In this document: positions 1 through 35,750 of the stretch, one piece after another
Position numbering within the stretch: position 1 is the first letter of the stretch
Layout: every line of letters begins with the position of its first letter
Assembly (NCBI GenBank): GCA_016177865.1
Contig: JACOUJ010000239.1
Span: forward strand, 1 to 38,386
Reading direction: 5' to 3'
Origin: Candidatus Rokuibacteriota bacterium
GTDB taxonomy: Bacteria; Methylomirabilota; Methylomirabilia; Rokubacteriales; JACOUJ01
DNA length: 38,386 nucleotides
The notes under the pieces: generated by a model
Seen by the model: the letters and a program-made list of their open reading frames with translations, nothing else
What the model was told of the DNA's origin: nothing
Databases searched by the model: none
Position numbers and translations under genes: made by a program

Positions 1-927
1 AAGGCGATAGTAGAGGTCCTCGCGGAAGTGTCCCTGCTGGAGCTGAACCTTCAGGTCCCGGTTCGTCGCAGCGATCACGCGAAGATCCAGGGGGATGGCC
101 TCGCGTCCCCCAACTCGCTCGATGGTGCGCTCCTGGAGGAAGCGAAGGAGCTTGACTTGGAGCATCAGGCTCAGCTCGCCGATCTCATCCAGGAACAGCG
201 TGCCGCGCTCCGCCAGCTCGAACCTGCCTTTGCGCTGGATGTGGGCCCCGGTGAACGCGCCCCTCTCGTGGCCGAAGAGCTCTGCCTCGAGGAGAGTTTC
301 CGGAATAGCCCCACAGTTGATCGCCACGAACGAGGCGCCGTGGCGCCGGCTCCGCCGGTGGATCGCTCGAGCGACGAGCTCCTTCCCCGTTCCGCTTTCC
401 CCCTGGACGAGGATCGTCGCGTCGGACTTGGCCACCCGCTGAACGATCCTGAAGATCTCGCGCATCGCGGGCGTGCTGCCGAGGATCTCCTCGAACCGGA
501 TCGCCTCTTCCTGATCGTGGATCCAACTCTCCGTCTCCTCCTCGAGTCCCTGGAGCCGGACGGCCCGCCGAAGCAGCACCTTGAACTCCGACAGGTCGAT
601 CGGCTTCAGGTAGTAGTCGAACGCTCCCAGCTGAACCGCTCGGAGGGCATTCTCGCGATCCTGGTTTCCGGTGACGACCACGACCTTCGCCGTGGGGGTG
701 AGTCGGAGAATCTCGTCGAGCGCGTTGAGACCTTCCTCCGCCGTGTCGGAGCGGGGCGGCAGCCCAAGGTCCAGAGTCACGAGCTCCGGCTGGCTCTCCT
801 GGATCGCCGCGATCGCCTGAGCCCTATCCTCGGCGAACGCGAGGGCATAATCCTCACGCAACGCGTACGTGAGCTGGGTGCGGATCGCTTCGTCGTCCTC
901 CACGATCAAGAGCTTGGGCTTCCTCAT
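1..927 (-). CDS. prsR: sigma-54-dependent response regulator, PEP-CTERM-box regulator PrsR-like (3' end runs off the window at position 1)
   Basis: Absent from the ORF track because no stop lies in the window. Reverse translation from ATG 927-925 gives [19 protein letters not shown]... (receiver domain). The AAA+ core follows, with Walker A GESGTGKE (379-402) and the sigma-54 contact loop GAFTGA (244-261). The window edge reads ...[35 protein letters not shown] Shine-Dalgarno sits 5 nt upstream of ATG 927; the in-frame ATG at 933 has no spacer. Confidence 0.9.
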
Positions 928-954
928 TGCCATCTCCCCGTGCACGCTCTCGCC

Positions 955-1599
955 CTAGTGCGGCAGCCTTCGCAGCAGCTCCGGGTAAAACGCTTGAACG
1001 AACTCGACCTGCTCAGCGAAGACCGACTCCGGCCCCGTCCCCTCGGGAACCGGCGAGGCGATCCGCACCAGGGCCCCATCGTCTCGCCGGTTCACGAGGC
1101 GGTTGTACAGAAGGAGCGCGCGATTCCAGTGGTCACTCGCCACGGTACGCGCGCCGACCTGGTACCAGTAGAGGACGGCAAACTCGCGGCCCCGCCCTCG
1201 CATGACGACGAGATTGGCCGGGATCACGCGTCCGGAGATCCCGTCAAGCGGGACGGTAACCGAGCGCGCGGTCAGCTCGCTCCACCCCTGGCCCGGATAG
1301 AGCAGCTCCTGCGACGCCGGCCGCTGCCGAACTTGGCTCGGGTAGTAGCCCACCGTCACCCAAACCATCTGCGTCCCGTTGCGATAGGCGCGGACGAGCT
1401 GGGCGGGCGCCGCCCGATCCTGGGGAAGCATCTCCGGTTCCCCCTGGTCCACCGCCTGCCAGTCCCGGAGGACGCCTGGGATGGTCTCCAGCGGTGCGAC
1501 CAGCGGAACCTGCCGGATTTCCCGTGGCACAGCAAAGAGCCCCCCGGCCAGCCCCAGAAGGGCCAAGGCTGCCGCACTGAACCACGAGAGACGTGTCAT
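955..1599 (-). CDS. epsI: EpsI-family exosortase-associated protein (single N-terminal TM/signal anchor)
   Basis: This is the C-terminal 214 aa of track ORF 955..2520, starting at MTRLSWFSAAALALLGLAGGLF. ATG 1599-1597 overlaps the exosortase stop as ATGA. Size, the N-terminal anchor and the position directly after an exosortase match EpsI-family proteins. The longer 521-aa ORF is an out-of-frame overlap with the exosortase gene. Confidence 0.8.
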   Translation of the reverse strand: MTRLSWFSAAALALLGLAGGLFAVPREIRQVPLVAPLETIPGVLRDWQAVDQGEPEMLPQDRAAPAQLVRAYRNGTQMVWVTVGYYPSQVRQRPASQELLYPGQGWSELTARSVTVPLDGISGRVIPANLVVMRGRGREFAVLYWYQVGARTVASDHWNRALLLYNRLVNRRDDGALVRIASPVPEGTGPESVFAEQVEFVQAFYPELLRRLPH

Positions 1600-2447
1600 C
1601 GGGACCACCGTCGTGCGAGCCCCATCAGGGCGCCGTCCAGGATCAGGAGCAACAGGAACGTCAGCAGGAAGTTCACGGTGCCGTTGAACATGTGATACGC
1701 GGTCTTCAGGGTCCACGGCCCGATGTAGTAGACGCCCGCGCCGGTCGTGGTGAGGCGAATGATGTTCGATGCGATCGCGAACGGCAGGGCCGCAGCGATC
1801 AGCGCCACGCGAGCCGCGACCGGCCGTCGCCCGAGCGACGCGTAGGCGACGCCGAGAGCGAGGAGTGCCGCGATGGCCGGGATACTGCTGCAAACGTCGG
1901 CCACCTCCAGCGTTATGTTCGGGAGGTGGAGGAACACGCCCTCGCGGTAGACCGGCACGCCCAGCCATCCTAGAGCCTCCGCGGAGGCCGCCGCGTCCAA
2001 AATCCGCGACCGGTAGGTAATCAGCTTCACGGTTACCCAGGGGAGCGGGATCATGAAGGCGAGGTATCCAATTCCGATCCAGGTCTCCCGGATGACCTTC
2101 GGGCCCGCCAGAAACAGCGTCAACCCGAGCAGCGTTACGGGAAACGAGACCCGCGCCAGAAAAAGCTCGCCACCCTGGACCCCGACGACAAGCGCCCCAA
2201 GCCCCGCAACCACCACGGGCAGCCCCCAGAGCGACGGCTCCAGCAGGATGGTCTGAAGGCGGTCCCGGCGTGCCCAGAGCAAGTAGGCGGCGATGAGCGG
2301 GATCGCGAAGCCGTGCGAGAGGTTCGGGAATTCGGCCCACTCGCGGACGATCGCGGGGAAGAGGGGACCGTAGAGGCCGACGGCCGCCAGGCCGGGAAGC
2401 CCGAGCGACAACCAGATCAACCGAGTCGACGGAGCGCACACAGTCAT
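1596..2447 (-). CDS. xrtA: exosortase (XrtA/EpsH-like polytopic membrane transpeptidase)
   Basis: Start chosen at MTVCAPSTRLIW (ATG 2447-2445), 5 nt after the prsK stop. The protein is polytopic. It has the N-terminal NLSHGF motif and exosortase catalytic positions Cys (EVADVCSS, 1890-1892), Arg (NIIRL, 1755-1757) and His (AYHMFNG, 1692-1694). The XrtA subtype is inferred from the linked prsK/prsR and has not been tested by HMM. Confidence 0.85.
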   Translation of the reverse strand: MTVCAPSTRLIWLSLGLPGLAAVGLYGPLFPAIVREWAEFPNLSHGFAIPLIAAYLLWARRDRLQTILLEPSLWGLPVVVAGLGALVVGVQGGELFLARVSFPVTLLGLTLFLAGPKVIRETWIGIGYLAFMIPLPWVTVKLITYRSRILDAAASAEALGWLGVPVYREGVFLHLPNITLEVADVCSSIPAIAALLALGVAYASLGRRPVAARVALIAAALPFAIASNIIRLTTTGAGVYYIGPWTLKTAYHMFNGTVNFLLTFLLLLILDGALMGLARRWSR

Positions 2448-2452
2448 GAGCT

Positions 2453-4570
2453 TCACGCGCTCGCCACCCCCTTTCGCGAGTGCTTGACAGGGAGCCGAAC
2501 CCAAAAGGTCGTTCCCTCACCGAGCTTGCTCGCCACCTCCATCGTCCCGCCGTGCGCCTCGACGATCAGCTTTGACTGGTAGAGGCCGATTCCCCAGCCG
2601 CCCTTCTTGGTCGAGCGGAACGGCACGAAGAGCGAGTTTCGGAGAAACTCCTCCGGGATGCCGGAGCCCGTGTCTGCGACCGAGACGACCGTCCACCCTT
2701 GGTCCTCGTAAGTGCGCACCGTCACGATGCCCTCCCCGTTGAGCGCCTCCCCTGCGTTGGTGACCAGGTTCTGGATCACCCGCAGGAGCGCATCACGGTC
2801 GCCACGGACCGCGTCCACCGGGGCGAGGTCGGTGACGAGACTCACCTTCGGGTTCTTCGCCAACGGGTCGGTCGCCGCATGGACAAGCGCCACGAGGTCG
2901 ACCACCTCTAGCTGCCGCTGTGCCGAGTCGGGGACCGGGGTCGCGCTCAGGCGGCTCAGCAGGGCCTTCATCCGGTCGACCGTCCGAGACAGGGTGCGAA
3001 CCGCGTCACGCTGGAACTCGGGGTCGTCGAAGTGAGCGAGGGCGTTCTGACTCAGCATGGACAGCGCCGAGATCGAATTCTTCAGATCGTGTACCACGAA
3101 CGTCGTTAGACGGTTGAACGCTTCGAACTCCCGAGATTGGACCAGGCGCTCGGAGAGCTGCGCCGTTACGAGAGCCCCGGCAGCCTGCTCCCCCACGGTC
3201 GCGAGGAACTCGAAGTCCTCGGGAACGTAAGTCGCGCCTGTTCGCTCCGGCCCGAGCAGCATGACGCCGGTCAACCGCCCCTGCCAGGGAAGCGGCACCG
3301 CGACCACCGCGTCAGGAAGAGTTTCCGCCAGCGCGCGTCCGCCGAGACGCTCAAGCGTCCCGCCACCGTTCCCCAACCGCACCGGTGTCTGCTCTGCCCT
3401 GACTCGCGCAAGGAGGGGGGACTCAGCCGCGAGCCTCGCCGGCAGCCCACGGGTCCCTGCCGCCGCTACGAGGTGGTACCGCCCGTCTCGCTCGTCGGCC
3501 AGATAGAGGGCGCTGGACGTCGCCCCGACCGCCTCACAGGCTGCGTTCACCAGCTCTGGCGCAAGCGCCTCCAAGGTGAGCCGCGACCCAAGACGTTTCG
3601 TGAAGCGCGACCACTGTTCCTGATAGTCGTACTTGCTCCGGTAGAAGTGGAGCCCGACGAAGCGCTTCACTCGCCGGCGGACCTCGCCAGAAAGCAGGAT
3701 CGCCGCCAGGCCCAGGGCCGAGACGAAGACGACGAGCGAGCCCCAGAAGAGCTCCTGCCGGATGCCCAGCGTGTTGAGGAGCCAGCCGAGCGCGCCTATG
3801 ACGAGGAGATAGCACCCGAGGACACCGACGACCATGGACCGATACACCAGCTGACGCGACACAGTCAGATCGGCTATCGCGAGTCGACCCCGGGCGAGCG
3901 AAGCGCCCACGAGCAAGTTGCCTACAAAAAGCGTCACCGCACCCGTGGTCAAGTAGTCGACCATCACGACCTTGAAAAGCAGCTCGTGGCTTAACAGGTA
4001 GAACCGGACGAGGAAGATCCCGCCCAGCCCGAGCAGGAGGTATTTCAGACGCCACCGGGTCGTCCCCCTCGACCGCCTGAGGCACCCCTCCAGAGCGGCG
4101 AGTATCCCGACCGTGGCTAAAAGCCGCACGACGCTGGCCGCATGTCCGATCACACTCAGGCGCGCTGCCAGGAACCTCCCCGGAGCATCGAATAGCTCAA
4201 AGCTCGGCCACAGGAGGACAGCCACTCCGCCGGCCAGGCCGAGGGCGCACAGAGCGCCGAGCGCCAGGCGCCAACCGAAACCGATCCGTTCCGCACCCGG
4301 ATGGCACAGAGCGGCTACAAATACGGTCCAGGGCACCGTCAGCAAGAGCCCCGCGACCGCGCTGATTCTGAGCCACAGCAAGTGATCAGCGGGCGTCTCC
4401 GTGACCGTTGCCAGCATGAACCCAGCGATTTGCTCGACGGCGAACCCGACCATTCCGGCCGCAAAACTCCAGTGAACGGACCTCGGACCCCGCTGCGCGA
4501 GAACCGCGGCTGCGAGGGCGAGGGCGCTGGTGGCCGCTAGAAGGAAGACGACTCCCTGGAGAACGATCAT
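2453..4570 (-). CDS. prsK: PEP-CTERM-system sensor histidine kinase PrsK-like (multi-TM N-terminus, GAF, HisKA, HATPase)
   Basis: 705-aa ORF. The N-terminal ~300 aa are hydrophobic and multi-spanning. A GAF-like segment reads SSALYLADERDGRYHLVAAAG. H-box is FVVHDLKNSISAL (His codon 3089-3091), N-box is LLRVIQNLVTNAGEAL, G1 is VADTGSGIP and G2 is GGWGIGLYQSK. Confidence 0.9.
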   Translation of the reverse strand: MIVLQGVVFLLAATSALALAAAVLAQRGPRSVHWSFAAGMVGFAVEQIAGFMLATVTETPADHLLWLRISAVAGLLLTVPWTVFVAALCHPGAERIGFGWRLALGALCALGLAGGVAVLLWPSFELFDAPGRFLAARLSVIGHAASVVRLLATVGILAALEGCLRRSRGTTRWRLKYLLLGLGGIFLVRFYLLSHELLFKVVMVDYLTTGAVTLFVGNLLVGASLARGRLAIADLTVSRQLVYRSMVVGVLGCYLLVIGALGWLLNTLGIRQELFWGSLVVFVSALGLAAILLSGEVRRRVKRFVGLHFYRSKYDYQEQWSRFTKRLGSRLTLEALAPELVNAACEAVGATSSALYLADERDGRYHLVAAAGTRGLPARLAAESPLLARVRAEQTPVRLGNGGGTLERLGGRALAETLPDAVVAVPLPWQGRLTGVMLLGPERTGATYVPEDFEFLATVGEQAAGALVTAQLSERLVQSREFEAFNRLTTFVVHDLKNSISALSMLSQNALAHFDDPEFQRDAVRTLSRTVDRMKALLSRLSATPVPDSAQRQLEVVDLVALVHAATDPLAKNPKVSLVTDLAPVDAVRGDRDALLRVIQNLVTNAGEALNGEGIVTVRTYEDQGWTVVSVADTGSGIPEEFLRNSLFVPFRSTKKGGWGIGLYQSKLIVEAHGGTMEVASKLGEGTTFWVRLPVKHSRKGVASA

Positions 4571-5586
4571 GGGAGCGCCTTCCTGAGCTCAAGGAGCCTA
4601 AAGTAGAAGGGATGCACACGGTTCCAGAGAGGCGATAGCACGCGGTCCTGGAACCATACCAGCGCCGGTGCCACGACAACCTCGAGGTTGTAGAACGTCT
4701 CCAGGTCCCCTCCCCACCGCCTCTTGAATGCGTACACCCCATAGCGCGGATCCCGCGGATCCTCCGTGGGTGTGCAACCTCCGAAGTCGAAGCGGCTCAG
4801 TCCGAGGCGCTTGGCCCCCCGAATCGCGTGCCAGAGCACGGCAGTCGGCGCTTGAAGAGCCGTGTACGCTCGGTCACGGGTCGAGGCCCCCGCGAAATAC
4901 AGCATCCTTTCCTTCGAGCATAGAAAGATGGCTCCCGCCACGGGGGTAGCATCGATACAAGCCAGGTAAAACTTTGCCGCCCCCGTTCCCGTCATGCGCT
5001 TGAACAACTCCGTGAAGAAGCTGGTCGGGAAATCCGTATACGCGCTCACGCTTCGGACTCTAGCGGAGGTCCCCCTCGCCAACGCGCAGTACGCCTCGAG
5101 GTCCGCGCTCGTGGTGATCTCCCGAACCTCCACGCCGGCCCTCTCGGCTTTTCGCACTGAGGTGCGCACACTGGGTCCTTGGTTCCTCAGCAGCATCTCC
5201 TCGCTCTGCGCCAGATCCAGAACGAATGTATGACGTTGGATGACCGTAGTTCGCGCACCGTGCGAAGCGTTCGTCGTTTCGGACTTGCCGAGCCCCCACA
5301 TCGAATCCCCCACTCTCACGTAGGACACACCGAGCTGCGCCATGGCCTCCACTGCCCGTGTGACAAAGCCCCCGTCCACACCAGCAGCGAACAGATTGGC
5401 CCGCGCGATCACACGTCGAACTCCGCGGGTCCATCCCCTTACCAGCGCCAGGGCGCGCTGATCGCCCTCGAAGAGATAGAGGGGGTGGTATCCCATAGTC
5501 GTCATGGCGGCCGCAAAACCGGTGAGTTGGCATGGTGCGGCGACCATCCGGTCCCACTGTGGCGGCGGAGAGCTAGAGACATTCAT
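4567..5586 (-). CDS. FemAB-family (aminoacyl-tRNA-dependent transferase fold) protein, PEP-CTERM-locus type
   Basis: 339 aa. The C-terminal YAFKRRWGGDLETFYN is typical of FemAB/Acetyltransf_6 proteins, and the length and double-GNAT-like layout fit. ATGA overlaps on both sides (4567-4570, 5583-5586). Confidence 0.75.
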   Translation of the reverse strand: MNVSSSPPPQWDRMVAAPCQLTGFAAAMTTMGYHPLYLFEGDQRALALVRGWTRGVRRVIARANLFAAGVDGGFVTRAVEAMAQLGVSYVRVGDSMWGLGKSETTNASHGARTTVIQRHTFVLDLAQSEEMLLRNQGPSVRTSVRKAERAGVEVREITTSADLEAYCALARGTSARVRSVSAYTDFPTSFFTELFKRMTGTGAAKFYLACIDATPVAGAIFLCSKERMLYFAGASTRDRAYTALQAPTAVLWHAIRGAKRLGLSRFDFGGCTPTEDPRDPRYGVYAFKRRWGGDLETFYNLEVVVAPALVWFQDRVLSPLWNRVHPFYFRLLELRKALP

Positions 5587-6389
5587 GACGCCTGTCCATT
5601 AGCCACGCCTGCCCGCGCCATCCGTTTGAGAAGCCGACGGACCTCCTGTTCCTTGCGAAACGGAAGGGCCCGGTAACAGCGGCCCTCACCCAAGCGCTGG
5701 GGGCAAGGAACGGCCGCCCCGTTCTCGATCGCCTTGATGGTGTCGACCATCATTCGCGCGCAGAGCTCCGCGGTCCGCAGCTCGATGGTCTCGAGGGTAT
5801 CTCCCGGGACGACCCGCAGCTCCTCACGAAGGAGAATCGGCCCCGTGTCAACACCAGGATCCACATAATGGACCGTGACACCGAGCCTTCCCCCCTCAAG
5901 GAGCGACCACAGGTTGGCGTGAACGCCGCGATAGTCCGGAAGCCACCCTGTATGGGCGTTGAGACATCCGAGTCGTGCTTGTTTGAGGATATGCGGCTTG
6001 ATGATGCACGTGCCGGCCAGCAATATGAAGTCGGCCGAAAGCTCTTCCAGAAGCTGCTCACACTGCTGGTCGTTATGGGAACCGACTTCGTAAACCGGCA
6101 TGCCGAGAAGAGATCCAATGTCTCGGACGCTGGATGGCACATCGTCTCGATAGACCCGCTTCACTTCCCGTCGGAAGCGTCTATCCGACAGCACCGTGTG
6201 CCAGATTTTGCGTGCCGTATCTGCCGGACCGTTGAGCTTTAGGAACTTCCACAGCCTTCTCAGCCTCTCGCCTAACCCCTTCGGCTCGAGGATCACGCCC
6301 GACACGGCAAGACCTTGCCGCGAGCACTCTCGAAGTGTGAGCACCCCCTGCCAGTTCGACGGTCGAGTGAGGAGTACGACTCGGCTCAT
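5583..6389 (-). CDS. formyltransferase-family protein (Fmt/PurN/sugar N-formyltransferase N-domain only)
   Basis: Start at MSRVVLLTRP (ATG 6389-6387, ATGA overlap with the upstream stop). Catalytic signature is LNAHTGWLPDYRGVHANLWSLLEG (HxxLLPxxRG-like Asn/His) plus HYVDPGVDTGPILL (the Asp of DxGxDTG). The upstream extension of the track ORF to 6578 is Arg-rich and overlaps the CapK-like gene. Confidence 0.85.
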   Translation of the reverse strand: MSRVVLLTRPSNWQGVLTLRECSRQGLAVSGVILEPKGLGERLRRLWKFLKLNGPADTARKIWHTVLSDRRFRREVKRVYRDDVPSSVRDIGSLLGMPVYEVGSHNDQQCEQLLEELSADFILLAGTCIIKPHILKQARLGCLNAHTGWLPDYRGVHANLWSLLEGGRLGVTVHYVDPGVDTGPILLREELRVVPGDTLETIELRTAELCARMMVDTIKAIENGAAVPCPQRLGEGRCYRALPFRKEQEVRRLLKRMARAGVANGQAS

Positions 6390-7750
6390 CGCGCCACTCT
6401 TTCCAGCATCGCGCCCAAGTACGCGTCGGCCACCGCAGAGATTACATATCGATGCTTCCCGGATACCGGCCGATCGATGCAGCTTGTGCTCACGACATCG
6501 ACGAGAACGCCGGGGCCCATCAGACCCTGCATCGCTGCCCTGATCGCGCCCAACTGGCCCTCCCCGAACGTAACGCACGGGACGACGTGGACGATGACGC
6601 GGTTCAGTGATTCCTGCAGAATCTGAAACTCCTGGACTCCAGGAATCTCGCGGAGAATGTAAATCGCTGCCAGCGCGTGAAGCACCCGACCATCAGGAGT
6701 CACAAGGAAGTCAGTGCTTCGACCCTGGATACCAGCGAGGACTGGTAGCGTTCGGCCACAGCGGCATCCGGCACGGCCAAGAACCCCGATGTCCTGCGTG
6801 CGGTAGCGAATGATCGGCATCGCAGGGGTGTCGAAATTGGTAATCACGAGTTCACCGGCCTCGCCGCTCGGACCGAGCACCTCGGCGTGAATACCCTCCG
6901 CGTTCACGTGGAGGCCTCCCGCTGGGCACTCGTTGGCGATCAAGCCCGCATCGCGTGACCCATATTCCTCGGCTACCACGCACCCGAGCCCCTCTCGGAT
7001 CAGAGCTCGCTGATAACCGAACAGCGGCTCTGCGGTCGAGAACACCGCCCGGAGGGACCGCGCGGCCCGGGTGAGCCCTCGGCGACTCAGATACTGACTG
7101 AGCAGTGTGATCGCACTGGCGTAGCCGTATATTTTCGCAGGTCGGAAGCGGTCAAGCAGCCGAGCATACGCGCCCAAAGCCCGCTCGCCCAAGTCGAAGG
7201 CGGACAGGGTTCGATAGTTCAACAGCCGATCACGCAGCACGCGGAGGGCTCCCTGGCGACTCAAGTCTCGCACAGAGCCCCACAGCGCGATCTCGCGCAC
7301 GCCGATCTCTAACCCGAACCAGCGGTGAGCCCGAAGGCGCGAGGCGTCCGAGAACGCCATGCGTTCCATGTCGATGAAGACCGTTACCGGGCTTCCAGTG
7401 GAGCCGCCCGTGCTGAATGGTCGCGCACCACGAACCGGCACGCGAGGCCTGAGCTCTCCTTGGTGGGCACGTACCATCTCCCGGGTCAGATAGGGCACGC
7501 GGCGAAGGTCGGAGAAGGATTGCACGCGACGAGGCGGAACTTCGTGCTCGTCAAAAACACGCCGGTAATAGGGAACATAGGCGTACGCATACTCGAGCAG
7601 TCGCCTGAGCCTTTCGAACCGGTACTCCTCCAGCGCAGCAGGCGCCAACCACTGCGTCCGATCGAGGTCGAACAGCCGGGCCAGCGTCCGCTTGCCGAGT
7701 AGCCACTCATGCGCCGGGAACAGGATCTTCTTCACCAGCAGCGGATGCAT
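6386..7750 (-). CDS. CapK/PaaK-like adenylate-forming enzyme (phenylacetate-CoA ligase / F390 synthetase family)
   Basis: 454 aa. N-terminal KKILFPAHEWLLGKR...YVPYYRRVFDEHEV, AMP-binding P-loop FSTGGSTGSPVTV, and a later YRTQDIG motif. This architecture is typical of capsule-locus CapK proteins. Confidence 0.8.
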   Translation of the reverse strand: MHPLLVKKILFPAHEWLLGKRTLARLFDLDRTQWLAPAALEEYRFERLRRLLEYAYAYVPYYRRVFDEHEVPPRRVQSFSDLRRVPYLTREMVRAHQGELRPRVPVRGARPFSTGGSTGSPVTVFIDMERMAFSDASRLRAHRWFGLEIGVREIALWGSVRDLSRQGALRVLRDRLLNYRTLSAFDLGERALGAYARLLDRFRPAKIYGYASAITLLSQYLSRRGLTRAARSLRAVFSTAEPLFGYQRALIREGLGCVVAEEYGSRDAGLIANECPAGGLHVNAEGIHAEVLGPSGEAGELVITNFDTPAMPIIRYRTQDIGVLGRAGCRCGRTLPVLAGIQGRSTDFLVTPDGRVLHALAAIYILREIPGVQEFQILQESLNRVIVHVVPCVTFGEGQLGAIRAAMQGLMGPGVLVDVVSTSCIDRPVSGKHRYVISAVADAYLGAMLERVAR

Positions 7751-8904
7751 GTCACGTCACCGGCGAGGACGGCCTCCTCCATCAGGAGGGCGTCCATGAA
7801 GAACTTTGCGGCCCAGTTTGGGTAGCTTCCGAACGCGTACCGCCCCCAGATCGGATGCGAGCCCTTCACGGCTCCCCTGATGTTCAGGTTCTCGGTGCGG
7901 CAGTCCTGCAGCCTCTTGAGAAAACCGGTGGCGCGCCGGCCACCATCAAGGAACGCCGGAACTCGCAAGATGTCATAGAGGCGAAACCACTGGGCCGCGA
8001 TCTGGGCGTTCCCCGTCAAGCAGGAGTACCGAGCCGTGGGTTTCCATCCAGGTCCGAACCGGCCGGGTATGAAACCCTCCGCTGTGAGATGCGCGAGGAC
8101 CGCCCGGCAGGCACGCGACGCCGCGGAGACGTGATCCAACCGGTCGAGCCGGAGTCCGCCCTCAAGAAGTCCTTGAGTGGTGTAGGCAATCGTGTGCAGA
8201 AAGGCATCCTCTCCAGCGTAGAACCCACAGTGGCGGAACCAGCCGTCGGGCTCCTGCTGCGACAGCGCCCAGTCCAGGTTCCGTCTACCCGCGAAGACGA
8301 ATCTGTCGTCGCCCGACACGAGTCCGACCTCGACCAACGCCCAGGCGGTGCGCGTGTTATAGGCGTGCAGTGTGTCCCGGTACTCGTGACGCCGCCACGC
8401 CCCATCATCGTCCTGGACGCGCACCAGCCAGTTGGCCGCGCGGACGGCCCCCTCCAGGTACCGCCGGTCTTTCGACGCCTCGTGCGCCGCGAGGAGTCCG
8501 AAGATGACCTGTCCGGTATTGAACACGACCGGCGGGTGTGGCCGATCGACGAAATGACCGGGGAACCCGCCACCCGGGTGCTGCACGGTGAGTTCCCATT
8601 CGGCCATGGCGAGGCTCCGCCTTGCGTATTCCCGGTCGCCCGAGTAGTCCGCGTAGGTCAGCAGGGTCGGAATGATGTAACCGGTGGTTTCTGGGTAGGA
8701 AGCGATCCAGCCATCCTCAAATGAGTACCCGCCCGAAACACCGTCGTCGGGGGTTGCGGCCTGCGCCCGGAGGATCCATCGAGCGACCTCTTCGAGATGG
8801 CTGCGCGTGGAGAGGGCGGGGCCATGCCATCCGAGGGCGTCACGAAGCAGCGCACGGCGCGCCTCGGTCCGGAAGAGCCTGTTCGTCAAGAGACGCGCAA
8901 TCAT
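7732..8904 (-). CDS. alpha/alpha-toroid protein with terpenoid-cyclase/prenyltransferase-type QW repeats, function unknown
   Basis: 390 aa. There is a strong QW motif RAANWLVRVQDDDGAW (8395-8442), a second RRNLDWALSQQEPDGW (8239-8286) and a weaker one near ARWILRAQAATPDDG. No signal peptide. ATGA overlap with the downstream GT4 gene. Confidence 0.6.
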   Translation of the reverse strand: MIARLLTNRLFRTEARRALLRDALGWHGPALSTRSHLEEVARWILRAQAATPDDGVSGGYSFEDGWIASYPETTGYIIPTLLTYADYSGDREYARRSLAMAEWELTVQHPGGGFPGHFVDRPHPPVVFNTGQVIFGLLAAHEASKDRRYLEGAVRAANWLVRVQDDDGAWRRHEYRDTLHAYNTRTAWALVEVGLVSGDDRFVFAGRRNLDWALSQQEPDGWFRHCGFYAGEDAFLHTIAYTTQGLLEGGLRLDRLDHVSAASRACRAVLAHLTAEGFIPGRFGPGWKPTARYSCLTGNAQIAAQWFRLYDILRVPAFLDGGRRATGFLKRLQDCRTENLNIRGAVKGSHPIWGRYAFGSYPNWAAKFFMDALLMEEAVLAGDVTCIRCW

Positions 8905-10139
8905 GCGTTGTTTCGGGGTGAGTAGTCGATGGCCTGCCCCACGCGAACCTCGCTCGGGGCTACGGGCACGAGACGCCGGAACTCCTCGAGCACAGTCTCT
9001 GCAGCGCGCTCCCAGCTCAAGCCCCGGGCGTAGGCGACCGTGGCGTCACGGTCCCACTGCCGGCCCAGTGCCTCCTCGATGGCCGAGGCCAGCCCGCGCG
9101 CGTCGCCGAATCGGACGAGGAGCCCGTCACGCCCGTCGCGCACGATCTCGGCATTCCCGCCTGCGTCTGTCGTCACCACAGGAACTCCGCTGGCCATGGC
9201 CTCGAGCAGAACATTCGCCCACCCTTCCGAGCGCGTCGCCAGGCAGAAGAGATCAGCTGCCGCATACCACCGGGGGAGCTCGTCATGAGGGCGCGGGCCG
9301 GCGATGAAAACATGCTCCACGAGACCGCGGGCCGCAATCATCCGTTCGAGATTCCTTCGGTAGCTGTCCCCCGGGCGCTCTGCACCAACGATGACGTAGA
9401 GTAGGTTGGGGTGGCGAGTGACAAGACCCGCAAGCGCGTCTACGACAAGGTGGTGTCCCTTGCCATCGTAGATCCCGCCGACGGCGAGGAGGATCGTTCG
9501 GTCGACCGCAAGCCCGCACGCCGCTCGAGCCGCGGCACGGTCCGAGGGATGAAATTGCTTGGTGTCCACGCCATTGGGAATCACGCGAATCTCGTGTGCT
9601 GGGATCTCCAGCTGCATCGCGACGTGTTTGAGTGACTGGCTGACCGCCACAATGCCGCTGGCCCGCCGAAGTGCCCAGCCGATCTGGGGACGATGAAGGG
9701 GGTAGCCTGAGAGCCGGACGATGCTCCCGCGCACCGTTATGAGGACCGGGATGCGAAGCACCTTGCCCAACATGACGGCGGCCGCCCCATCCGGATACAC
9801 GAAGTGGGCGTCGATCAGATCGAACGGAAACTCCCGGCGGAGGCGAACCACGAAGGCAAGGAGTGAGCCTGCGTAGAGCAGCGCGTCGAGCCACTTGAGA
9901 TACCGGGGAACGCAGAAGAACCGGGGATGATACACAGAGAGGCCCTGCTGCATCTCGAACGCCGGAACCCCTGTCACGTGAGGGCCGCGGATCAGGCCGT
10001 TGAGCGGGAACCAGGGTATCGGCGCCACCACCCTGAGCTCGCAGTGGCGGGCCACCAGCCGCGCGCGCTGCCGGATGAACACCCCCAGAGCCGGCTGTCT
10101 CGGATTCGGAAAGACCGAGCTCAGTACGAGGACTCGCAC
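8901..10139 (-). CDS. GT4-family (GT-B, retaining) glycosyltransferase
   Basis: C-terminal motif SEGWANVLLEAMASGVPVVTTDAGGNAEIVRDGRDGLLV. The track start at 10154 is a TTG. I prefer GTG 10139 (MRVLVLSSVFPNP), preceded by GAGG with a 5-nt spacer. GTG 10145 is also possible. Confidence 0.85.
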   Translation of the reverse strand: MRVLVLSSVFPNPRQPALGVFIRQRARLVARHCELRVVAPIPWFPLNGLIRGPHVTGVPAFEMQQGLSVYHPRFFCVPRYLKWLDALLYAGSLLAFVVRLRREFPFDLIDAHFVYPDGAAAVMLGKVLRIPVLITVRGSIVRLSGYPLHRPQIGWALRRASGIVAVSQSLKHVAMQLEIPAHEIRVIPNGVDTKQFHPSDRAAARAACGLAVDRTILLAVGGIYDGKGHHLVVDALAGLVTRHPNLLYVIVGAERPGDSYRRNLERMIAARGLVEHVFIAGPRPHDELPRWYAAADLFCLATRSEGWANVLLEAMASGVPVVTTDAGGNAEIVRDGRDGLLVRFGDARGLASAIEEALGRQWDRDATVAYARGLSWERAAETVLEEFRRLVPVAPSEVRVGQAIDYSPRNNA

Positions 10140-10146
10140 GGTCACC

Positions 10147-11328
10147 TCATGCAAGTTCTGAGTAGATTCGCAAGTACATCGGGACCACTCGGTCCCAACT
10201 GCGTTCTCCCAGCACGTAACTGCGGGCAGTCTCGCCGAGCGCCTTCCGAAGAAGCGGATCGGCGCCGACGCGCGTCGCCTGGGCGACGAAGGCCCGCTGA
10301 CTCTCCGCGGGGAAGAGCAGACCGGTAGCCTCGTGCCGGATCAACTCCCGGTGCCCTCCCACGTCGCTGGCCAACACCGGCCTCCCCATGGCCATCGCCT
10401 CCAGCGGCTTGAGAGGTGTCACCAACTCGGTCAGGCGGATCCGTCGGCGCGGGCACACGAAGACGTCCATCACCGAAAGGAACTCGCTGACCCGCTGGTG
10501 GGGCACCTGCCCAACGAAAACCACGGTATCGCCCAGACACGCCGCCGCGGTCCGGAGCGCGGCATCTTCTTCCCCTCCCCCGACCAGCAGCACCCTGGCG
10601 CCGACGAGAGCCTCGCGGATCGCCGGGATCGAGTCGATCAAGAAGCGGAGTCCCTCGTAGCGGTAGAAGGACCCGATGAAGCCGAAGACTGGACCTCCGT
10701 TCAGCCCGATCCTCTTGGCCAGGCTCTCGCTCCGGGAACGTGGCCGAAACACGTCCACGTCGACTCCGTTGGGAACGACGGCGACGCGCGCCGCGTCCAC
10801 GCCCCGCCGCACGATCTCCTTGCGCATTCCCTCGCAGATCGTGACGACCCGGTCGGCCTTGCGGAAGAGCCAGGTCTCCACGAGCCGGATGAGGCGGTAG
10901 CGAAGCGATCCCTGGCGAACCGTTCCATGGTCGACGGCGGCGTCTTCCCAAAACGCCCGGGCCTCGTAGATGACCGGAAGTCCGAGGCGGCGGCCCGCCC
11001 AGAGCGCCGGGAGACCGTTGAGCAGCGGCGAGTGCGCATGGAGGAACGAGGCGCGCTCGCTACGGGCGACCGCCGCGATGCGCATCGCCATGCGTCCCAT
11101 CTGTCGGACCTCGCGGAGCCACGATAGCCGCCCTCCGACAGGGCCAGTCCGGTAATGGCGGACGCCCTCCAGCGTGTCGGCACCATCCCGTTCACTCCCC
11201 TGTCGGGGGGAGGTCAGGACGACCGGCCGGAGTCCGACCTGTTGCTGGAACCTGACCAGGTTCCGGCTGCGGAAGCTGTAGCCGCTGGCGAGCGGGACCG
11301 AGTGATCCAGGATATGCAGAATCGTCAT
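10147..11328 (-). CDS. GT4 glycosyltransferase, PEP-CTERM/exosortase-A-associated type (Daro_2409-like)
   Basis: The N-terminus MTILHILDHSVPLASGYSFRSRNLVRFQ matches, from memory, the hallmark start of the exosortase-associated GT family. C-terminal motif is PLKPLEAMAMGRPVLASDVGGHRELIRHEATGLLF. Confidence 0.85.
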   Translation of the reverse strand: MTILHILDHSVPLASGYSFRSRNLVRFQQQVGLRPVVLTSPRQGSERDGADTLEGVRHYRTGPVGGRLSWLREVRQMGRMAMRIAAVARSERASFLHAHSPLLNGLPALWAGRRLGLPVIYEARAFWEDAAVDHGTVRQGSLRYRLIRLVETWLFRKADRVVTICEGMRKEIVRRGVDAARVAVVPNGVDVDVFRPRSRSESLAKRIGLNGGPVFGFIGSFYRYEGLRFLIDSIPAIREALVGARVLLVGGGEEDAALRTAAACLGDTVVFVGQVPHQRVSEFLSVMDVFVCPRRRIRLTELVTPLKPLEAMAMGRPVLASDVGGHRELIRHEATGLLFPAESQRAFVAQATRVGADPLLRKALGETARSYVLGERSWDRVVPMYLRIYSELA

Positions 11329-13975: not shown

Positions 13976-13977
13976 CC

Positions 13978-17686: not shown

Positions 17687-17689
17687 CGT

Positions 17690-27955: not shown

Positions 27956-27970
27956 TGCAGCCAACCCTCG

Positions 27971-34712: not shown

Positions 34713-35750
34713 CTACAGCGCCATCCGATACCACGCGAGCTTCAGCGCGAAAGTCGGGACGTCATGTTCCCACGGTTGCCCTCGCCGGAGTTCCCACGGC
34801 GATGTCCTTCGAGTGTTGATGCCGAAGCGCGCGCTGACCGCGCACGTGAACCCCGCCTCGCGGACCAGGCGCACTACTGCCGCGGTGTAGTCTCCGGATT
34901 GCCCGTTTGGGTAGGCAAAAGCGCGAGGCCTGTGGCCGCACGCTGACTCGATCATCGCGCGGGAGCCCTCGATCTCCGACCGAACCCGCTCGAGGCTGAC
35001 GCGCGAGAGGATCGGGTGGTTCACCGTGTGGGCACCGATGGCGAACCCCAGCCCCATCAGAGCGTGAACATCGTCCCAACCGAGCATGAGGCCCTTAAAG
35101 TTCCGCTGCTCCGTTACCCCGAGACTTTCGAGCAACCCGTCCACAGTGCGCCGCAGCTCTTCGTCCTGAAGGCGCTTGAGCGCGTCGAGCGTTCGCTGAA
35201 GGCCGCGGACTCGGTCTCCGTCACTAGCCAGGCTCATCGTTTCGCCCCACGGTGTGGCGATGAACGTGGCCTTCGTCAGCTTGAACGCCATCGCGAGCCG
35301 ATCGAACCACGGAACCTCGGCGGTACCGATGAAGCCCGTTGCGAGGAACACGCTGGCGGGCGCTCGGTATTTCGTCAGGATCGGTGCGACATGCGTCAAG
35401 ACATCCCGATAGCCGTCATCGAAAGTGATCGCGAGAGCGTTTCGCGGGAGTCCGCCACTGCGCATCCGCTCCACCAGTTCTTCCAAGATGAGCACGCGGT
35501 AGGTGCGAGCGACGAAGCGCATCTGCCGCTCGAAAACCTCGGTCGGGACCGACGGGAAGAATGGGTCACGATTATCATCGACTCGGTGGTACACGAGGAT
35601 CGGGAAAGCCGGATACCGGCGATACGACAATCCTCCCGGACCTCCTAAAGCCGCATAGTCTGAAAATCTCGACAGGCCGCCGACCGCTCCCGATTTGTAG
35701 AGTCCGGCGGCCAAAGCTCGAACGATGGTCGCTCGCGCCCGGCCTCTCAT
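34713..35750 (-). CDS. polysaccharide deacetylase (NodB homology domain, CE4)
   Basis: Start at MRGRARATIV (ATG 35750-35748, sharing 1 nt with the upstream TGA). NodB motifs are ITFDDGYRD (Asp-Asp) and IGAHTVNHP (H-x-x-x-H metal ligands). Confidence 0.85.
   Translation of the reverse strand: MRGRARATIVRALAAGLYKSGAVGGLSRFSDYAALGGPGGLSYRRYPAFPILVYHRVDDNRDPFFPSVPTEVFERQMRFVARTYRVLILEELVERMRSGGLPRNALAITFDDGYRDVLTHVAPILTKYRAPASVFLATGFIGTAEVPWFDRLAMAFKLTKATFIATPWGETMSLASDGDRVRGLQRTLDALKRLQDEELRRTVDGLLESLGVTEQRNFKGLMLGWDDVHALMGLGFAIGAHTVNHPILSRVSLERVRSEIEGSRAMIESACGHRPRAFAYPNGQSGDYTAAVVRLVREAGFTCAVSARFGINTRRTSPWELRRGQPWEHDVPTFALKLAWYRMAL

Follow-up and report, generated by a model that had tools for sequence, protein, structure and literature searches.

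Within the window analysed here, a 38,386-nucleotide stretch of a Candidatus Rokubacteria metagenome-assembled genome (an uncultured soil bacterium), four overlapping genes for a toroid, a ligase, a formyltransferase and a Fem-like transferase appear to form a mosaic of separable tailoring modules rather than one dedicated pathway. By analogy with known systems, we consider it moderately probable that these are cytoplasmic glycan-tailoring genes, organized as two modules within a long, translationally coupled XrtA/PEP-CTERM exopolysaccharide operon, with the lipid-linked repeat unit as their target. Only the formyltransferase is new among the four enzymes; the other three have known analogues. 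The interpretation given in the initial annotation of this DNA is supported in part. As stated there, the four activities are not known to be combined in any described pathway.

Gene Structure and Locus Context

All four open reading frames were confirmed on the minus strand (Table 1), with start codons backed by homologues beginning at the same residue, and profile matches agreed with the four fold classes first assigned, the terpenoid likeness of the toroid aside. The overlaps described in the initial annotation proved exact when read from the sequence: the Fem-like and formyltransferase genes meet in an ATGA at 5583-5586, the formyltransferase and ligase genes in an ATGA at 6386-6389, and the ligase and toroid genes overlap by 19 nt at 7732-7750 (ligase ATG at 7750, toroid TGA stop at 7734-7732). 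The outer junctions of the block are likewise ATGA, at 4567-4570 with PrsK and at 8901-8904 with a GT4 glycosyltransferase. Because overlaps of 4-28 nt run through about 12 consecutive genes (2453 to 15842), they do not delimit a four-gene unit. Signal peptides and transmembrane segments were absent from all four proteins, which points to the cytoplasm, where their presumed cofactors ATP, aminoacyl-tRNA and formyl-THF are found.

Table 1. Features of the locus by position in the window.
Feature	Position	Strand	Support
PrsR sigma-54 response regulator, partial (runs off window)	1..927	-	65% identity to L026 PrsR over 309 aa
Exosortase (XrtA-like) fused to EpsI	955..2520	-	EpsI domain matches; N-terminal half aligns to L006 Exosortase_EpsH gene
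PrsK, XrtA/PEP-CTERM histidine kinase	2453..4570	-	TIGR02916 433.7 bits, cut-off 300
Fem-like transferase, FemX-size, 339 aa, paralogue family Fem1	4567..5586	-	FemAB PF02388 71.9 bits; Acetyltransf_6 PF13480 69.4 bits
N10-formyl-THF-type formyltransferase, short, 268 aa	5583..6389	-	Formyl_trans_N PF00551 85.9 bits
CapK/PaaK-like adenylate-forming ligase, 454 aa	6386..7750	-	PDB PaaK profile E 1.9e-40
Toroid, 390 aa, (alpha/alpha)6 barrel, QW-like repeats	7732..8904	-	SQHop_cyclase_C 30.1 bits, cut-off 26.1, partial coverage
GT4 glycosyltransferase GT4a, immediately upstream of toroid	8901..10154	-	Pfam
stp3 XrtA-system GT4 glycosyltransferase	10147..11328	-	TIGR04063 490.6 bits, cut-off 442; synteny (conserved core)
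AsnB-like amidotransferases, two of three	12059-14281 and 15815-17686		
CE4 polysaccharide deacetylase	34713..35810	-	PF01522 85.7 bits
Third AsnB-like amidotransferase (WbpS-like)	35750..37630	-	TIGR03108 335 bits, below cut-off
Second Acetyltransf_6 (Fem/CelD-type) gene, window edge	37597..38385	-	PF13480 90.6 bits

The assignment to a PEP-CTERM/exosortase locus was upheld by profile scores, which identified PrsK and PrsR, exosortase/EpsI (start codon uncertain, GTG 2520 or GTG 2439), the stp2/stp3 GT4s, XrtA amidotransferases and a TIGR03097 ligase-like protein. These components are shared with the canonical XrtA/PEP-CTERM exopolysaccharide locus (Haft et al., 2006, PMC1569441; Rubrivivax cluster, PMC3684757), the AsnB-GT1-GT1-CapK order is also present in Rubrivivax, and a 'possible CapK' has been correlated with PEP-CTERM since 2006 (PMC1569441). 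In contrast, the toroid, the Fem1 subfamily and the formyltransferase lie outside the described canonical set, and no TIGR03019 plus TIGR03006 pair was found above cut-off in the locus. No PEP-CTERM protein was found encoded within the window. The third AsnB-like amidotransferase is a candidate for uronamide formation. The CE4 deacetylase gene had been overlooked in the initial annotation.

Recurrence and Modularity in Related Loci

The four genes are linked in other genomes as well: the same order recurs in five independent lineages or contigs, with protein identities of 45-73% (the formyltransferase down to 45%), which is far beyond chance; the metagenomic sampling is skewed to soil Rokubacteria and includes several near-duplicate contigs. 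A single obligate cassette is nonetheless not supported, as the ligase occurs with GT4s alone, the toroid occurs without the ligase, and the formyltransferase is replaceable. In all 16 ligase-anchored genomes (Rokubacteria/Methylomirabilota, Binatia, Verrucomicrobiia, Deferrimicrobiaceae, Spirochaetales and Nitrospirae) stp3, GT4a and the ligase were found without toroid, formyltransferase or Fem-like genes. The ligase thus belongs to a GT4-GT4-ligase core, with GT4a as its conserved partner, adjoining ligase or toroid in all related loci. The toroid and Fem1 co-occur in 13 of 14 informative loci and are an accessory pair travelling together. In L001 and L008, toroid homologues at 57-58% identity have no neighbouring ligase gene and are surrounded by genes for glycosyltransferases, amidotransferases and deacetylases.

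The slot just upstream of Fem1 is a variable position. It holds a formyltransferase in the window and in L009, L026/L031, L030, the P0260 contig, L028 and L029, a GNAT in L006, a second Fem paralogue (Fem2) in L036, L040, L041/42, L043, L044, L051 and L074, and in one locus (L045) a methyltransferase, which is not an acyl cap; in L007 and L037 it is empty. Even within one Fem1 clade of the paralogue tree the slot varies between formyltransferase, GNAT and methyltransferase. Gene order in L006 matches that of the P0260 contig except for the exchange of formyltransferase and GNAT and a UDP-sugar dehydrogenase/GT4 pair inserted on the P0260 contig, and the best, though weak, matches of the L006 GNAT are the alpha-amine acetylases RimI, ArsN1 and EctA.

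Toroid and Ligase as a Putative Uronate-Tailoring Module

The toroid had been described as terpenoid-cyclase-like, a likeness that did not extend to the whole fold. Its AF2 model (pLDDT 93) is a single (alpha/alpha)6 barrel whose best Foldseek matches were GH88 hydrolases and AGE-type sugar 2-epimerases including 3wkf (TM 0.68-0.73), compared with TM 0.57/0.32 to terpene cyclases; the model indicates a carbohydrate-active-like rather than a terpenoid protein. Its homologues number more than 4494 and lie in glycan loci wherever their context was examined, those at 41-42% identity adjoining UDP-sugar dehydrogenase and 2-epimerase genes. The ligase matched the PaaK-like structure 4r1l (E 7.5e-23) and carries a precomputed CapK_C domain (PF27533); its P-loop (G115-G119) and Lys432, the A10 lysine, are invariant among homologues.

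A close known parallel to this pair is the Vibrio cholerae VPS system, in which, according to published genetics, the attachment of glycine to a lipid-linked HexNAcA through VpsH requires prior action of VpsJ, a proposed C5 epimerase (PMC13463779, 2026). We compared the proteins with a Vibrio sp. vpsA-K-like cluster found by synteny, standing in for V. cholerae VpsH/VpsJ. The ligase is clearly homologous to the VpsH-position protein (hhalign probability 99.9%, E 2.9e-34, 29% identity over 350 columns), whereas the similarity of the toroid to the VpsJ-position protein is marginal (87.5%, E 3.6e-6, only 104 aligned columns). The role assigned to VpsH, uronic acid glycine amidation (PMC13463779), is a related one for the CapK-like family, and the alternative named in the initial annotation, that the formyltransferase and CapK-like genes fall into families with unrelated assigned roles, was not borne out. 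In both systems a CapK-like ligase, a six-hairpin-type protein of about 390 aa and a GT4 (VpsI in Vibrio) are clustered in an exopolysaccharide locus (that of the biofilm in V. cholerae), both barrel proteins resemble AGE/cellobiose 2-epimerases in fold, and lipid-linked intermediates in the cytoplasm are the actual or predicted substrates of both sets. They differ in gene order (H-I-J in Vibrio, GT4-toroid-ligase here) and in pathway type (a Wzx/Wzy vps locus compared with an XrtA/PEP-CTERM locus with Wzm/Wzt), and VPS lacks the Fem-like gene and the formyltransferase. By this analogy the toroid is a candidate VpsJ-like sugar (uronate) epimerase and the ligase a candidate VpsH-like uronate-carboxyl:amino-acid amide ligase. 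Together with the upstream GT4s they would form a first module, in which the toroid may epimerize a hexuronic acid residue on the undecaprenyl-PP-linked repeat unit, and the ligase may then adenylate the carboxylate of the epimerized residue and amide-link an amino acid, giving an amino-acid amide on the uronic acid.

Fem-Like Transferase and Formyltransferase as a Putative Aminoacylation Module

The Fem-like protein had been taken for a FemAB-like PEP-CTERM marker. Its Fem fold was confirmed, but it is not the canonical marker, scoring only 37.9 bits on TIGR03019 (cut-off 260). A profile search aligned it, FK motif included, with Staphylococcus aureus FemX (6snr, E 6.7e-10), while the single sequence matched FemX/FemA/FemB at phmmer E 1.4e-4 and very low identity; its acceptor and tRNA dependence are putative. 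It has the size of Weissella FemX and, like it, lacks a coiled-coil insert. The region around the F-K motif is conserved, and the tandem Fem1/Fem2 genes of related loci recall the stepwise additions by FemX, FemA and FemB; the Fem enzymes serve cell-wall synthesis, whereas this gene belongs to an exopolysaccharide operon in an uncultured phylum of didermic type.

A second parallel is the Wbp/Vim linking-sugar pathway of Porphyromonas gingivalis and Tannerella forsythia (VimE CE4, VimA, WbpS; PMC7468200, 2020), where VimA, which matches TIGR03019, places Ser or Gly on a sugar amine once VimE has carried out the deacetylation. Both loci combine a Fem/GNAT-type transferase, a CE4 enzyme and AsnB-like amidotransferases in a glycan locus tied to sortase-type protein anchoring, and both have an N-aminoacyl sugar as predicted product. 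Unlike in that pathway, the Fem-like gene lies apart from the CE4 gene, the Wbp genes are absent from the window, the TIGR03019 score of the Fem-like protein is low, and the formyltransferase would block the free amine that in the VimA product is the sortase acceptor. By analogy with VimA and FemX the Fem-like enzyme is a candidate VimA-like, aminoacyl-tRNA-dependent sugar-amine aminoacylase, with aminoacyl-tRNA use assumed from family membership.

The formyltransferase residues Asn144, His146 and Asp181 do not vary across 23 homologues, and an HxxxLPxxRG motif is present. It shares this triad, the motif and the Formyl_trans_N core with the ArnA N-domain, WbkC, VioF, PseJ and Fmt, and its AF2 model (pLDDT 91) matched ArnA-N, Fmt and WbkC in Foldseek at TM 0.6-0.67. 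It differs from these enzymes in lacking a C-terminal OB-type domain (no Formyl_trans_C, PF02911, was found) and in a unique basic two-helix insert of about 50 residues after strand 2, whose net charge lies between +5 and +12 throughout the 23 homologues. The clade is rare, with two 50%-identity clusters among 1.84 billion representatives, and the protein falls below every NCBIfam equivalog cut-off.

We infer that in a second module the Fem-like enzyme would take the amino acid of an aminoacyl-tRNA and attach it to a free sugar amine, which the CE4 deacetylase of the locus, a candidate for a VimE-like step, could expose without an aminotransferase. Next, the formyltransferase would use N10-formyl-THF to cap the newly introduced alpha-amine with a formyl group. 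The corresponding position in sister loci may be acetylated (GNAT), be extended by another amino acid (through the Fem2 paralogue) or stay free. A sugar amine carrying an N-formyl-capped aminoacyl group, close to the decoration first proposed for the whole block, is the most plausible product of these two enzymes because the slot upstream of the Fem-like gene in relatives holds other amine-acylating enzymes; as the product of a four-gene pathway the proposal was not sustained.

It is possible, though unlikely, that the formyltransferase is instead an ordinary sugar N-formyltransferase of the WbkC/VioF/ArnA/PseJ kind, acting on a nucleotide- or lipid-linked amino sugar while the Fem-like enzyme works at another site. 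Its length of 268 aa without the Fmt/ArnA C-terminal domain is like that of stand-alone sugar enzymes, PseJ, ArnA and WbkC are among its best sequence or fold matches, a 33%-identical relative (P0270) adjoins a DegT aminotransferase, and DegT genes lie near ligase and Fem genes in L007 and L037. Alternation of formyl and acetyl groups is also typical of amino-sugar pathways. Against this, domain and profile searches found no sugar aminotransferase or dehydratase in the 38-kb window, as the initial annotation had noted, whereas clade members with known context all lie in toroid-ligase-formyltransferase-Fem order, directly upstream of the Fem-like gene and usually overlapping it. The frequent second Fem-like paralogue in the same slot also points to an aminoacylatable amine.

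Order of Steps and Target

A single linear pathway, in which the toroid epimerizes a uronic acid, the ligase adds a diamino acid (Lys, Orn or Dap), and the Fem-like enzyme aminoacylates its side-chain amine before formyl capping, would put the view of the initial annotation in concrete terms and seems less probable still. It would match the gene order, the translational coupling of all four genes and the complete order in five lineages. The natural acceptor of FemX is the epsilon-amine of Lys (lipid II Lys). VpsH-type ligases do join amino acids to uronates (PMC13463779). The overlaps, however, are operon-wide, and besides the 16 genomes with the ligase but neither Fem-like nor toroid genes, Fem1 directly follows the toroid without a ligase in L033 and L039, and a Fem1 relative (~45% identity) forms a tandem pair with Fem2 in loci whose available sequence includes no toroid and no ligase (e.g., L056, L059, L062).

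We think it very improbable that the formyltransferase formylates aminoacyl-tRNA, as Fmt does Met-tRNAfMet, for transfer of a ready-made N-formyl-aminoacyl group to the glycan. Of all single sequences, E. coli Fmt matches it best (1fmt, E 1.6e-18; TIGR00460, 70.8 bits), it obligately adjoins a presumed tRNA-dependent transferase, and its conserved basic insert sits where E. coli Fmt has the insertion loop that, after Schmitt et al., reportedly contacts tRNA. That insert might just as well serve to bind undecaprenyl-PP or a nucleotide, though; the C-terminal tRNA-binding domain is absent, the score lies under the Fmt equivalog cut-off of 201.5, and the alternation of the slot with GNAT and a second Fem paralogue fits capping after transfer better.

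PEP-CTERM proteins, peptidoglycan or lipid as targets, for example in building or blocking an exosortase acceptor, are suggested by the abutting prsK and exosortase genes, by the T9SS VimA product being a protein-anchoring nucleophile (the same was speculated for exosortase loci; PMC7468200) and by peptidoglycan precursors being classic Fem substrates, but are very unlikely given that GT4 glycosyltransferases flank the block upstream and co-vary with it, that other loci have a different gene downstream in place of prsK (PrsR in L006, a UDP-sugar dehydrogenase on the P0260 contig) and that the window yielded no PEP-CTERM protein. The second Acetyltransf_6 protein at the window edge shares only 24% identity with the Fem-like protein of the block (E 0.13) and looks unrelated to it.

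Genomic context of the four-gene block

Nearly all genes in the window, a contig from a Candidatus Rokubacteria MAG, lie on the minus strand and make up one large XrtA/PEP-CTERM exopolysaccharide (EPS) locus, in which the defining set of PrsK, exosortase/EpsI, PrsR (partial) and XrtA-type glycosyltransferases and amidotransferases was present. TIGR02916 (433.7 bits), TIGR04063 (490.6 bits) and TIGR03097 (439.1 bits) scored above their cut-offs, and TIGR03108 (753.9 and 704.1 bits) and TIGR03088 (391.3 bits) slightly under theirs. A scan of all ORFs in the 38-kb window for PEP-CTERM tails gave no convincing PEP-CTERM protein.

Features of the XrtA/PEP-CTERM locus in transcription order, with positions and strand where assigned
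Feature	Positions	Strand
Acetyltransf_6 gene	37597-38385	minus
AsnB-like amidotransferase		minus
CE4 deacetylase	34713-35810	minus
Methyltransferase		
Carbamoyltransferase (NodU-like)	31632-33407	
Two GDSL proteins		
Wzm/Wzt exporter	26732-28753	
GT2 and GT4 genes		
Two unknown proteins		
Kelch propeller	19013-21532	
O-antigen-ligase-like protein (TIGR03097)	17690-19003	
Two XrtA-type amidotransferases, stp2, methyltransferases		
stp3 (TIGR04063 GT4)	10147-11328	
GT4	8901-10154	
Toroid	7732-8904	minus
Ligase (CapK/PaaK-like)	6386-7750	minus
Formyltransferase	5583-6389	minus
Fem-like	4567-5586	minus
PrsK	2453-4570	
Exosortase-EpsI fusion	~955-2520	
PrsR (truncated)	1-927	

The gene overlaps by which the initial annotation had linked the toroid, ligase, formyltransferase and Fem-like genes are present (ATGA at 5583-5586 and 6386-6389, and 19 nt at 7732-7750), and the start codons chosen for these genes are backed by homologue alignments. 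The junctions flanking the block are likewise ATGA (4567-4570 with prsK and 8901-8904 with the GT4 gene), and overlaps of 4-28 nt continue across about 12 consecutive genes. Since they run through the operon, the translational coupling they imply is a property of the operon as a whole, and the overlaps were rejected as a sign of a four-gene unit. Within positions 1-19500 a promoter scan returned 0 sigma-70-like sites, and terminator-like sites were fewer than the shuffle mean, with no internal boundary detectable. The sigma-54 -24/-12 pattern was uninformative (28 matches vs 31.9 expected).

Recurrence and modularity of the gene order

In a survey of species-representative genomes anchored on the ligase (16 loci, sequence up to 10 kb either side), loci were recovered from Rokubacteria/Methylomirabilota, Binatia, Verrucomicrobiia, Deferrimicrobiaceae, Spirochaetales, Nitrospirae and Thermoanaerobaculia. 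The gene order that recurred was AsnB-methyltransferase-stp3-GT4-ligase, with PrsK and XrtA next in all loci recovered as far as that end, and toroid, formyltransferase and Fem-like genes occurred in none of the 16 loci within this distance. This pattern agrees with the listing of 'Possible CapK' among PEP-CTERM-correlated genes (Haft et al., 2006, PMC1569441) and with the order AsnB-GT1-GT1-CapK in Rubrivivax, where a biofilm screen recovered transposon insertions in the CapK gene, among others (PMC3684757).

All members of the formyltransferase clade with readable context showed the order GT4-toroid-ligase-formyltransferase-Fem (the window, the metagenome loci L009, L026/L031 and L030, and the P0260 contig), and two short contigs (L028, L029) carried formyltransferase-Fem. 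Five independent full occurrences were left after removal of near-duplicates. A second survey, anchored on the Fem-like protein in metagenomes (69 loci), revealed two paralogous families, Fem1, to which the window protein belongs, and Fem2, together with a variable slot directly upstream of Fem1. This slot was occupied by the formyltransferase in the window and clade loci, by a GNAT in L006, by Fem2 in L036, L040, L041/42, L043, L044, L051 and L074, and by a methyltransferase in L045, and was empty in L007 and L037. One single Fem1 clade has the formyltransferase, GNAT or methyltransferase in the slot, and L006 and the P0260 contig are syntenic save for a GNAT/formyltransferase swap and an inserted UDP-sugar dehydrogenase/GT4 pair. 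Toroid and Fem1 were both present in 13 of 14 informative loci; L033 and L039 have toroid-Fem1 without the ligase, and tandems of Fem1 and Fem2 that lack both toroid and ligase make up a more distant group.

The idea that the four families form a cassette is thus borne out as a linked order found repeatedly, but not as a strict unit, as its parts are separable. The four-gene order is real and recurrent, yet it is one state of a modular region. Here the ligase goes with the two GT4s, toroid and Fem1 make up an accessory pair, and an amine-modifying slot is filled interchangeably by the formyltransferase or by one of several other genes. In L045 (373-2900) ATP-grasp and Methyltransf_24 proteins precede Fem1 in place of the ligase and formyltransferase, an arrangement that may offer an alternative ATP-dependent route of amino-acid ligation in the same slot region.

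Ligase and toroid proteins

The ligase (454 aa) matched PaaK in a profile search (4r1l, E 1.9e-40), with an invariant P-loop (S-T-G-G-S-T-G) and A10 lysine (K432), and PF27533 (CapK_C) is a precomputed assignment on the ligase protein P0121. Against the model for phenylacetate-CoA ligase proper it scored far under the cut-off (TIGR02155, 80.5 bits vs 646.3). Residues C275, H281, C329 and C331 were invariant across 20 homologues and may coordinate a structural metal, which would be a hallmark of this CapK-like subfamily.

The toroid (390 aa) had been described as terpenoid-cyclase-like, a description that did not hold. AF2 modelled it (pLDDT 93) as one (alpha/alpha)6 barrel and not as a two-domain protein, and the terpene cyclase models scored far under their cut-offs (TIGR01507, 17.7 bits vs 431; TIGR01787, 22.7 vs 322.7). 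The match to SHC was limited to residues 154-225, one hairpin region, and OSC gave TM 0.57/0.32. Whole-fold matches (3wiw, TM 0.73; 8h1l, 4z4l and 5zhb, TM 0.67-0.72, probability 1.00) instead place it in the six-hairpin (alpha/alpha)6 carbohydrate-active fold (GH88, AGE epimerases, GH76, GH127), with GH88 unsaturated glucuronyl hydrolases and AGE-type glucose/cellobiose 2-epimerases closest at TM ~0.7. Residues H36, E72, H237, E248, K367 and D371 are invariant.

Toroid homologues number more than 4494. Those of L001 and L008 (57-58% identity) lie among glycosyltransferase, amidotransferase and deacetylase genes with no adjoining ligase, and those at 41-42%, from a groundwater bacterium and a Woesearchaeote, lie beside UDP-sugar dehydrogenases, UDP-GlcNAc 2-epimerase and acetyltransferases. 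In the plasmid collection, close relatives were found on two haloarchaeal megaplasmids and nowhere else. Beside the archaeal homologue on the Woesearchaeota contig (L004, 3949-6654) a 901-aa UDP-glucose/GDP-mannose dehydrogenase with an Intein_splicing match appears to be an intein-containing sugar dehydrogenase.

A vpsA-K-like cluster on a Vibrio sp. chromid in the plasmid collection consists of Epimerase_2, UDP-sugar dehydrogenase, GT4, Wzx, a 414-aa protein, Hexapep, a CapK-like gene, GT4, a 388-aa six-hairpin-like gene and WecG. From this gene order and the V. cholerae vps-I map, we take the CapK-like and 388-aa genes to occupy the VpsH and VpsJ positions. The ligase family aligned with the VpsH-position gene of Vibrio sp. 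THAF191d over 350 columns (hhalign probability 99.9%, E 2.9e-34), including the terminal GK motif and CxCGR, which forms part of the ligase's Cys/His set; the alignment of the toroid family with the VpsJ-position gene was weak, over 104 columns (probability 87.5%, E 3.6e-6). In the biosynthesis of V. cholerae VPS, the PaaK/CapK-like VpsH is needed for the glycine amide on GulNAcA of a lipid-linked disaccharide, the evidence for its ligation role being genetic; VpsJ, with a predicted fold like GlcNAc/cellobiose 2-epimerases (3WKF), is needed before the VpsH step and is a proposed C5 epimerase, and VpsI and VpsD are GT4s (mBio 2026, PMC13463779). By analogy, the CapK-type ligase is a candidate for attaching an amino acid to a uronic-acid carboxylate. 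An archaeal F390-synthetase-like AglU may attach threonine, but this parallel has no part in the assignment. Literature searches on CapK with phenylacetate-CoA ligase, PEP-CTERM with FemAB, and F390 synthetase with glycan gave nothing usable.

Fem-like protein and formyltransferase

The Fem-like protein (339 aa) matched Pfam FemAB (PF02388, 71.9 bits vs a cut-off of 24) and Acetyltransf_6, which agrees with the fold first assigned to it, but it is not the canonical PEP-CTERM FemAB marker (TIGR03019, 37.9 bits vs 260.35; the Fem2 paralogue, 33.2 bits). A profile of five orthologues matched S. aureus FemX (6snr, E 6.7e-10), FemA and Weissella FemX as well as an 'aminoacyl-tRNA-dependent peptide synthase'. 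Near the C-terminus GVYAFKRRWGG aligns with hyGlwaFKKvWG of S. aureus FemX, and F287 and K288 of this stretch are invariant in the 5 orthologues; the Phe-Lys motif of Fem proteins has a functional role. On this sequence evidence the protein is a candidate aminoacyl-tRNA-dependent transferase, with aminoacyl-tRNA as the presumed donor. Fem1 and Fem2 are ~40% identical and very often stand in tandem in either order (L041, L051, L074, L052, L056, L062 and others), recalling the stepwise FemX/FemA/FemB additions, which suggests dipeptide side chains in the polymers of these loci.

The formyltransferase (268 aa) matched Formyl_trans_N (PF00551, 85.9 bits vs 26.1), and its Asn/His/Asp signature is intact, as originally read (N144, H146 and D181, invariant in 23 homologues). 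The best sequence matches were Fmt, PseJ, PurN and ArnA, and all equivalog cut-offs were missed, including those for methionyl-tRNA formyltransferase (TIGR00460, 70.8 bits vs 201.5) and characterised sugar N-formyltransferases (ArnA, 42.7 bits vs 777; PRK07579, 37.8 vs 238). Only ~38 residues lie beyond the core and the C-terminal Fmt/ArnA domain is absent; the C-terminal tRNA-binding domain PF02911 was not matched in the window protein and is not recorded for the formyltransferase protein P0241 or close homologues. Structure prediction, proposed for choosing between a sugar N-formyltransferase and an Fmt-like enzyme, yielded a confident model (AF2, pLDDT 91), but the fold search did not decide between the two, as ArnA, Fmt, FDH and WbkC scored alike.

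The model shows a ~50-residue two-helix insert after strand 2 (residues 35-86), whose net charge lies between +5 and +12 throughout the 23 homologues and accounts for most of that of the whole protein. Judged by sequence register, the insert sits where E. coli Fmt has a short insertion loop that contacts tRNA, and it could bind tRNA, pyrophosphate-lipid or membrane. Among 5.8 billion proteins, full-length homologues with 45% identity or more numbered only ~20, and an exhaustive HMM search placed the clade as two 50%-identity clusters within a broader family of 896 short formyltransferases. The neighbourhoods of two relatives at 35-36% identity (P0262, P0263) were uninformative, and the plasmid collection held no formyltransferase-Fem pair from a cultured organism.

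Proposed pathway and alternatives

A published relative of this chemistry is the Wbp/Vim pathway of Porphyromonas gingivalis and Tannerella forsythia, where a di-N-acetyl-hexuronic acid is deacetylated by VimE, a CE4 enzyme, so that its C2 amine becomes free, VimA, which matches TIGR03019, sets whether Ser or Gly is attached at this amine, the AsnB-like WbpS makes a uronamide, and the free aminoacyl amine is the T9SS sortase acceptor; its authors speculated that the same chemistry occurs in exosortase loci (mBio 2020, PMC7468200). All three enzyme types are present in the window (CE4, three AsnB-like and two Fem/Acetyltransf_6 genes). The CE4 gene lies ~29 kb upstream of the Fem-like gene in the operon and is not adjacent to it.

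The whole case is built on comparative genomics of uncultured bacteria, and every chemical step below is inferred. The cytoplasm is the expected site of action of the four proteins, with nucleotide- or lipid-linked intermediates as substrates, given their presumed cofactors (ATP, aminoacyl-tRNA and formyl-THF) and the lack of a signal peptide or membrane segment in any of them. The reading that we favor, at about even chances, has two branches. In one, a hexuronic acid would be added to the lipid-linked repeat unit by the GT4s and epimerised by the toroid, and the ligase would adenylate its carboxylate to form an amino-acid amide. In the other, the Fem-like enzyme would aminoacylate a sugar amine from aminoacyl-tRNA and the formyltransferase would cap the alpha-amine of the added residue. 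The other slot occupants fit this scheme, as the closest matches of the L006 GNAT, weak ones, are alpha-amine acetylases, and Fem2 would add a second residue in its loci.

Direct formylation of an amino sugar is unlikely, yet the strongest of the alternatives; in its favor, a formyltransferase relative at 33% identity adjoins a DegT gene, and against it, the 38-kb window holds no sugar aminotransferase or dehydratase, as initially noted, though such genes could lie elsewhere in the genome. A single linear pathway through a diamino acid seems somewhat more doubtful still. We regard it as highly improbable that the aminoacyl-tRNA is formylated before transfer, for which the position of the basic insert at the tRNA-contacting loop of Fmt speaks and against which the missing C-terminal domain argues; non-glycan targets are just as hard to credit.

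An improbable further proposal is that the slot is a programmable 'amine switch' on the exosortase attachment sugar. If left free, as in the VimA product, the aminoacyl amine would be able to accept PEP-CTERM proteins for attachment, and a formyl (in the window), an acetyl or a second residue would cap the amine or adjust its behavior. In the boldest version of this proposal the basic insert would let the formyltransferase use aminoacyl-tRNA and the Fem-like enzyme would install a pre-formylated residue, which, if true, would be the first use of formyl-aminoacyl-tRNA outside translation initiation.

The XrtA/PEP-CTERM system was described ~20 years ago, and for the chemistry of its EPS the two-branch reading makes a testable prediction. 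Two modifications are expected on the repeat unit. A uronic acid should bear an amino-acid amide, and the other group should be an N-acyl-aminoacyl one, with its cap (formyl, acetyl, second residue or none) readable from the single slot gene. The locus type and its CapK and Fem-like associations are already known, and functional precedents for ligase, toroid and Fem-like protein were published in 2020 and 2026; three of the four activities have characterised analogues. What is new is the small, previously unannotated formyltransferase clade with its distinctive basic insert, its obligate position beside a distinct Fem1 subfamily, and the mix-and-match slot, from which an aminoacyl sugar with differing N-caps is predicted. 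The comparison also sets the recently assigned VpsH and VpsJ functions in a far wider frame of many phyla, with archaeal toroid relatives.

Additional features of the locus

The upstream-end module (34713-38385) of CE4 deacetylase, AsnB-like amidotransferase and Acetyltransf_6 gene resembles VimE/WbpS/VimA, though all three score under the canonical PEP-CTERM TIGRFAM cut-offs, and the Acetyltransf_6 protein shares just 24% identity with the block Fem-like protein. The locus combines an ABC-type exporter with a Wzy/O-antigen-ligase-like protein, and it also has a NodU-like carbamoyltransferase and two membrane-anchored GDSL proteins. The gene content points to several more decorations (carbamoyl, O-acyl, methyl). 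Large Kelch beta-propeller proteins recur beside these XrtA loci (the window, where the protein is without a PEP-CTERM tail; L026, 15802-18801; L007, 18031-19170). The ORF at 12059-14281 (740 aa, GTG start) has ~100 surplus N-terminal residues; as amidotransferase models begin at residue 103, its true start is probably near 13975, directly past the stop of the methyltransferase gene at 13978-14700. Over the formyltransferase and ligase genes (5001-7000) GC content falls to 0.61-0.63, against 0.65-0.68 either side, as would fit if this segment had arrived more recently. The best NCBIfam names for the methyltransferase at 11325-12062 (DVU_1556 family) and the ligase (DVU_1553 family), both under cut-off, hint that Desulfovibrio has a related cassette, curated separately, in which the same methyltransferase and ligase types are paired.
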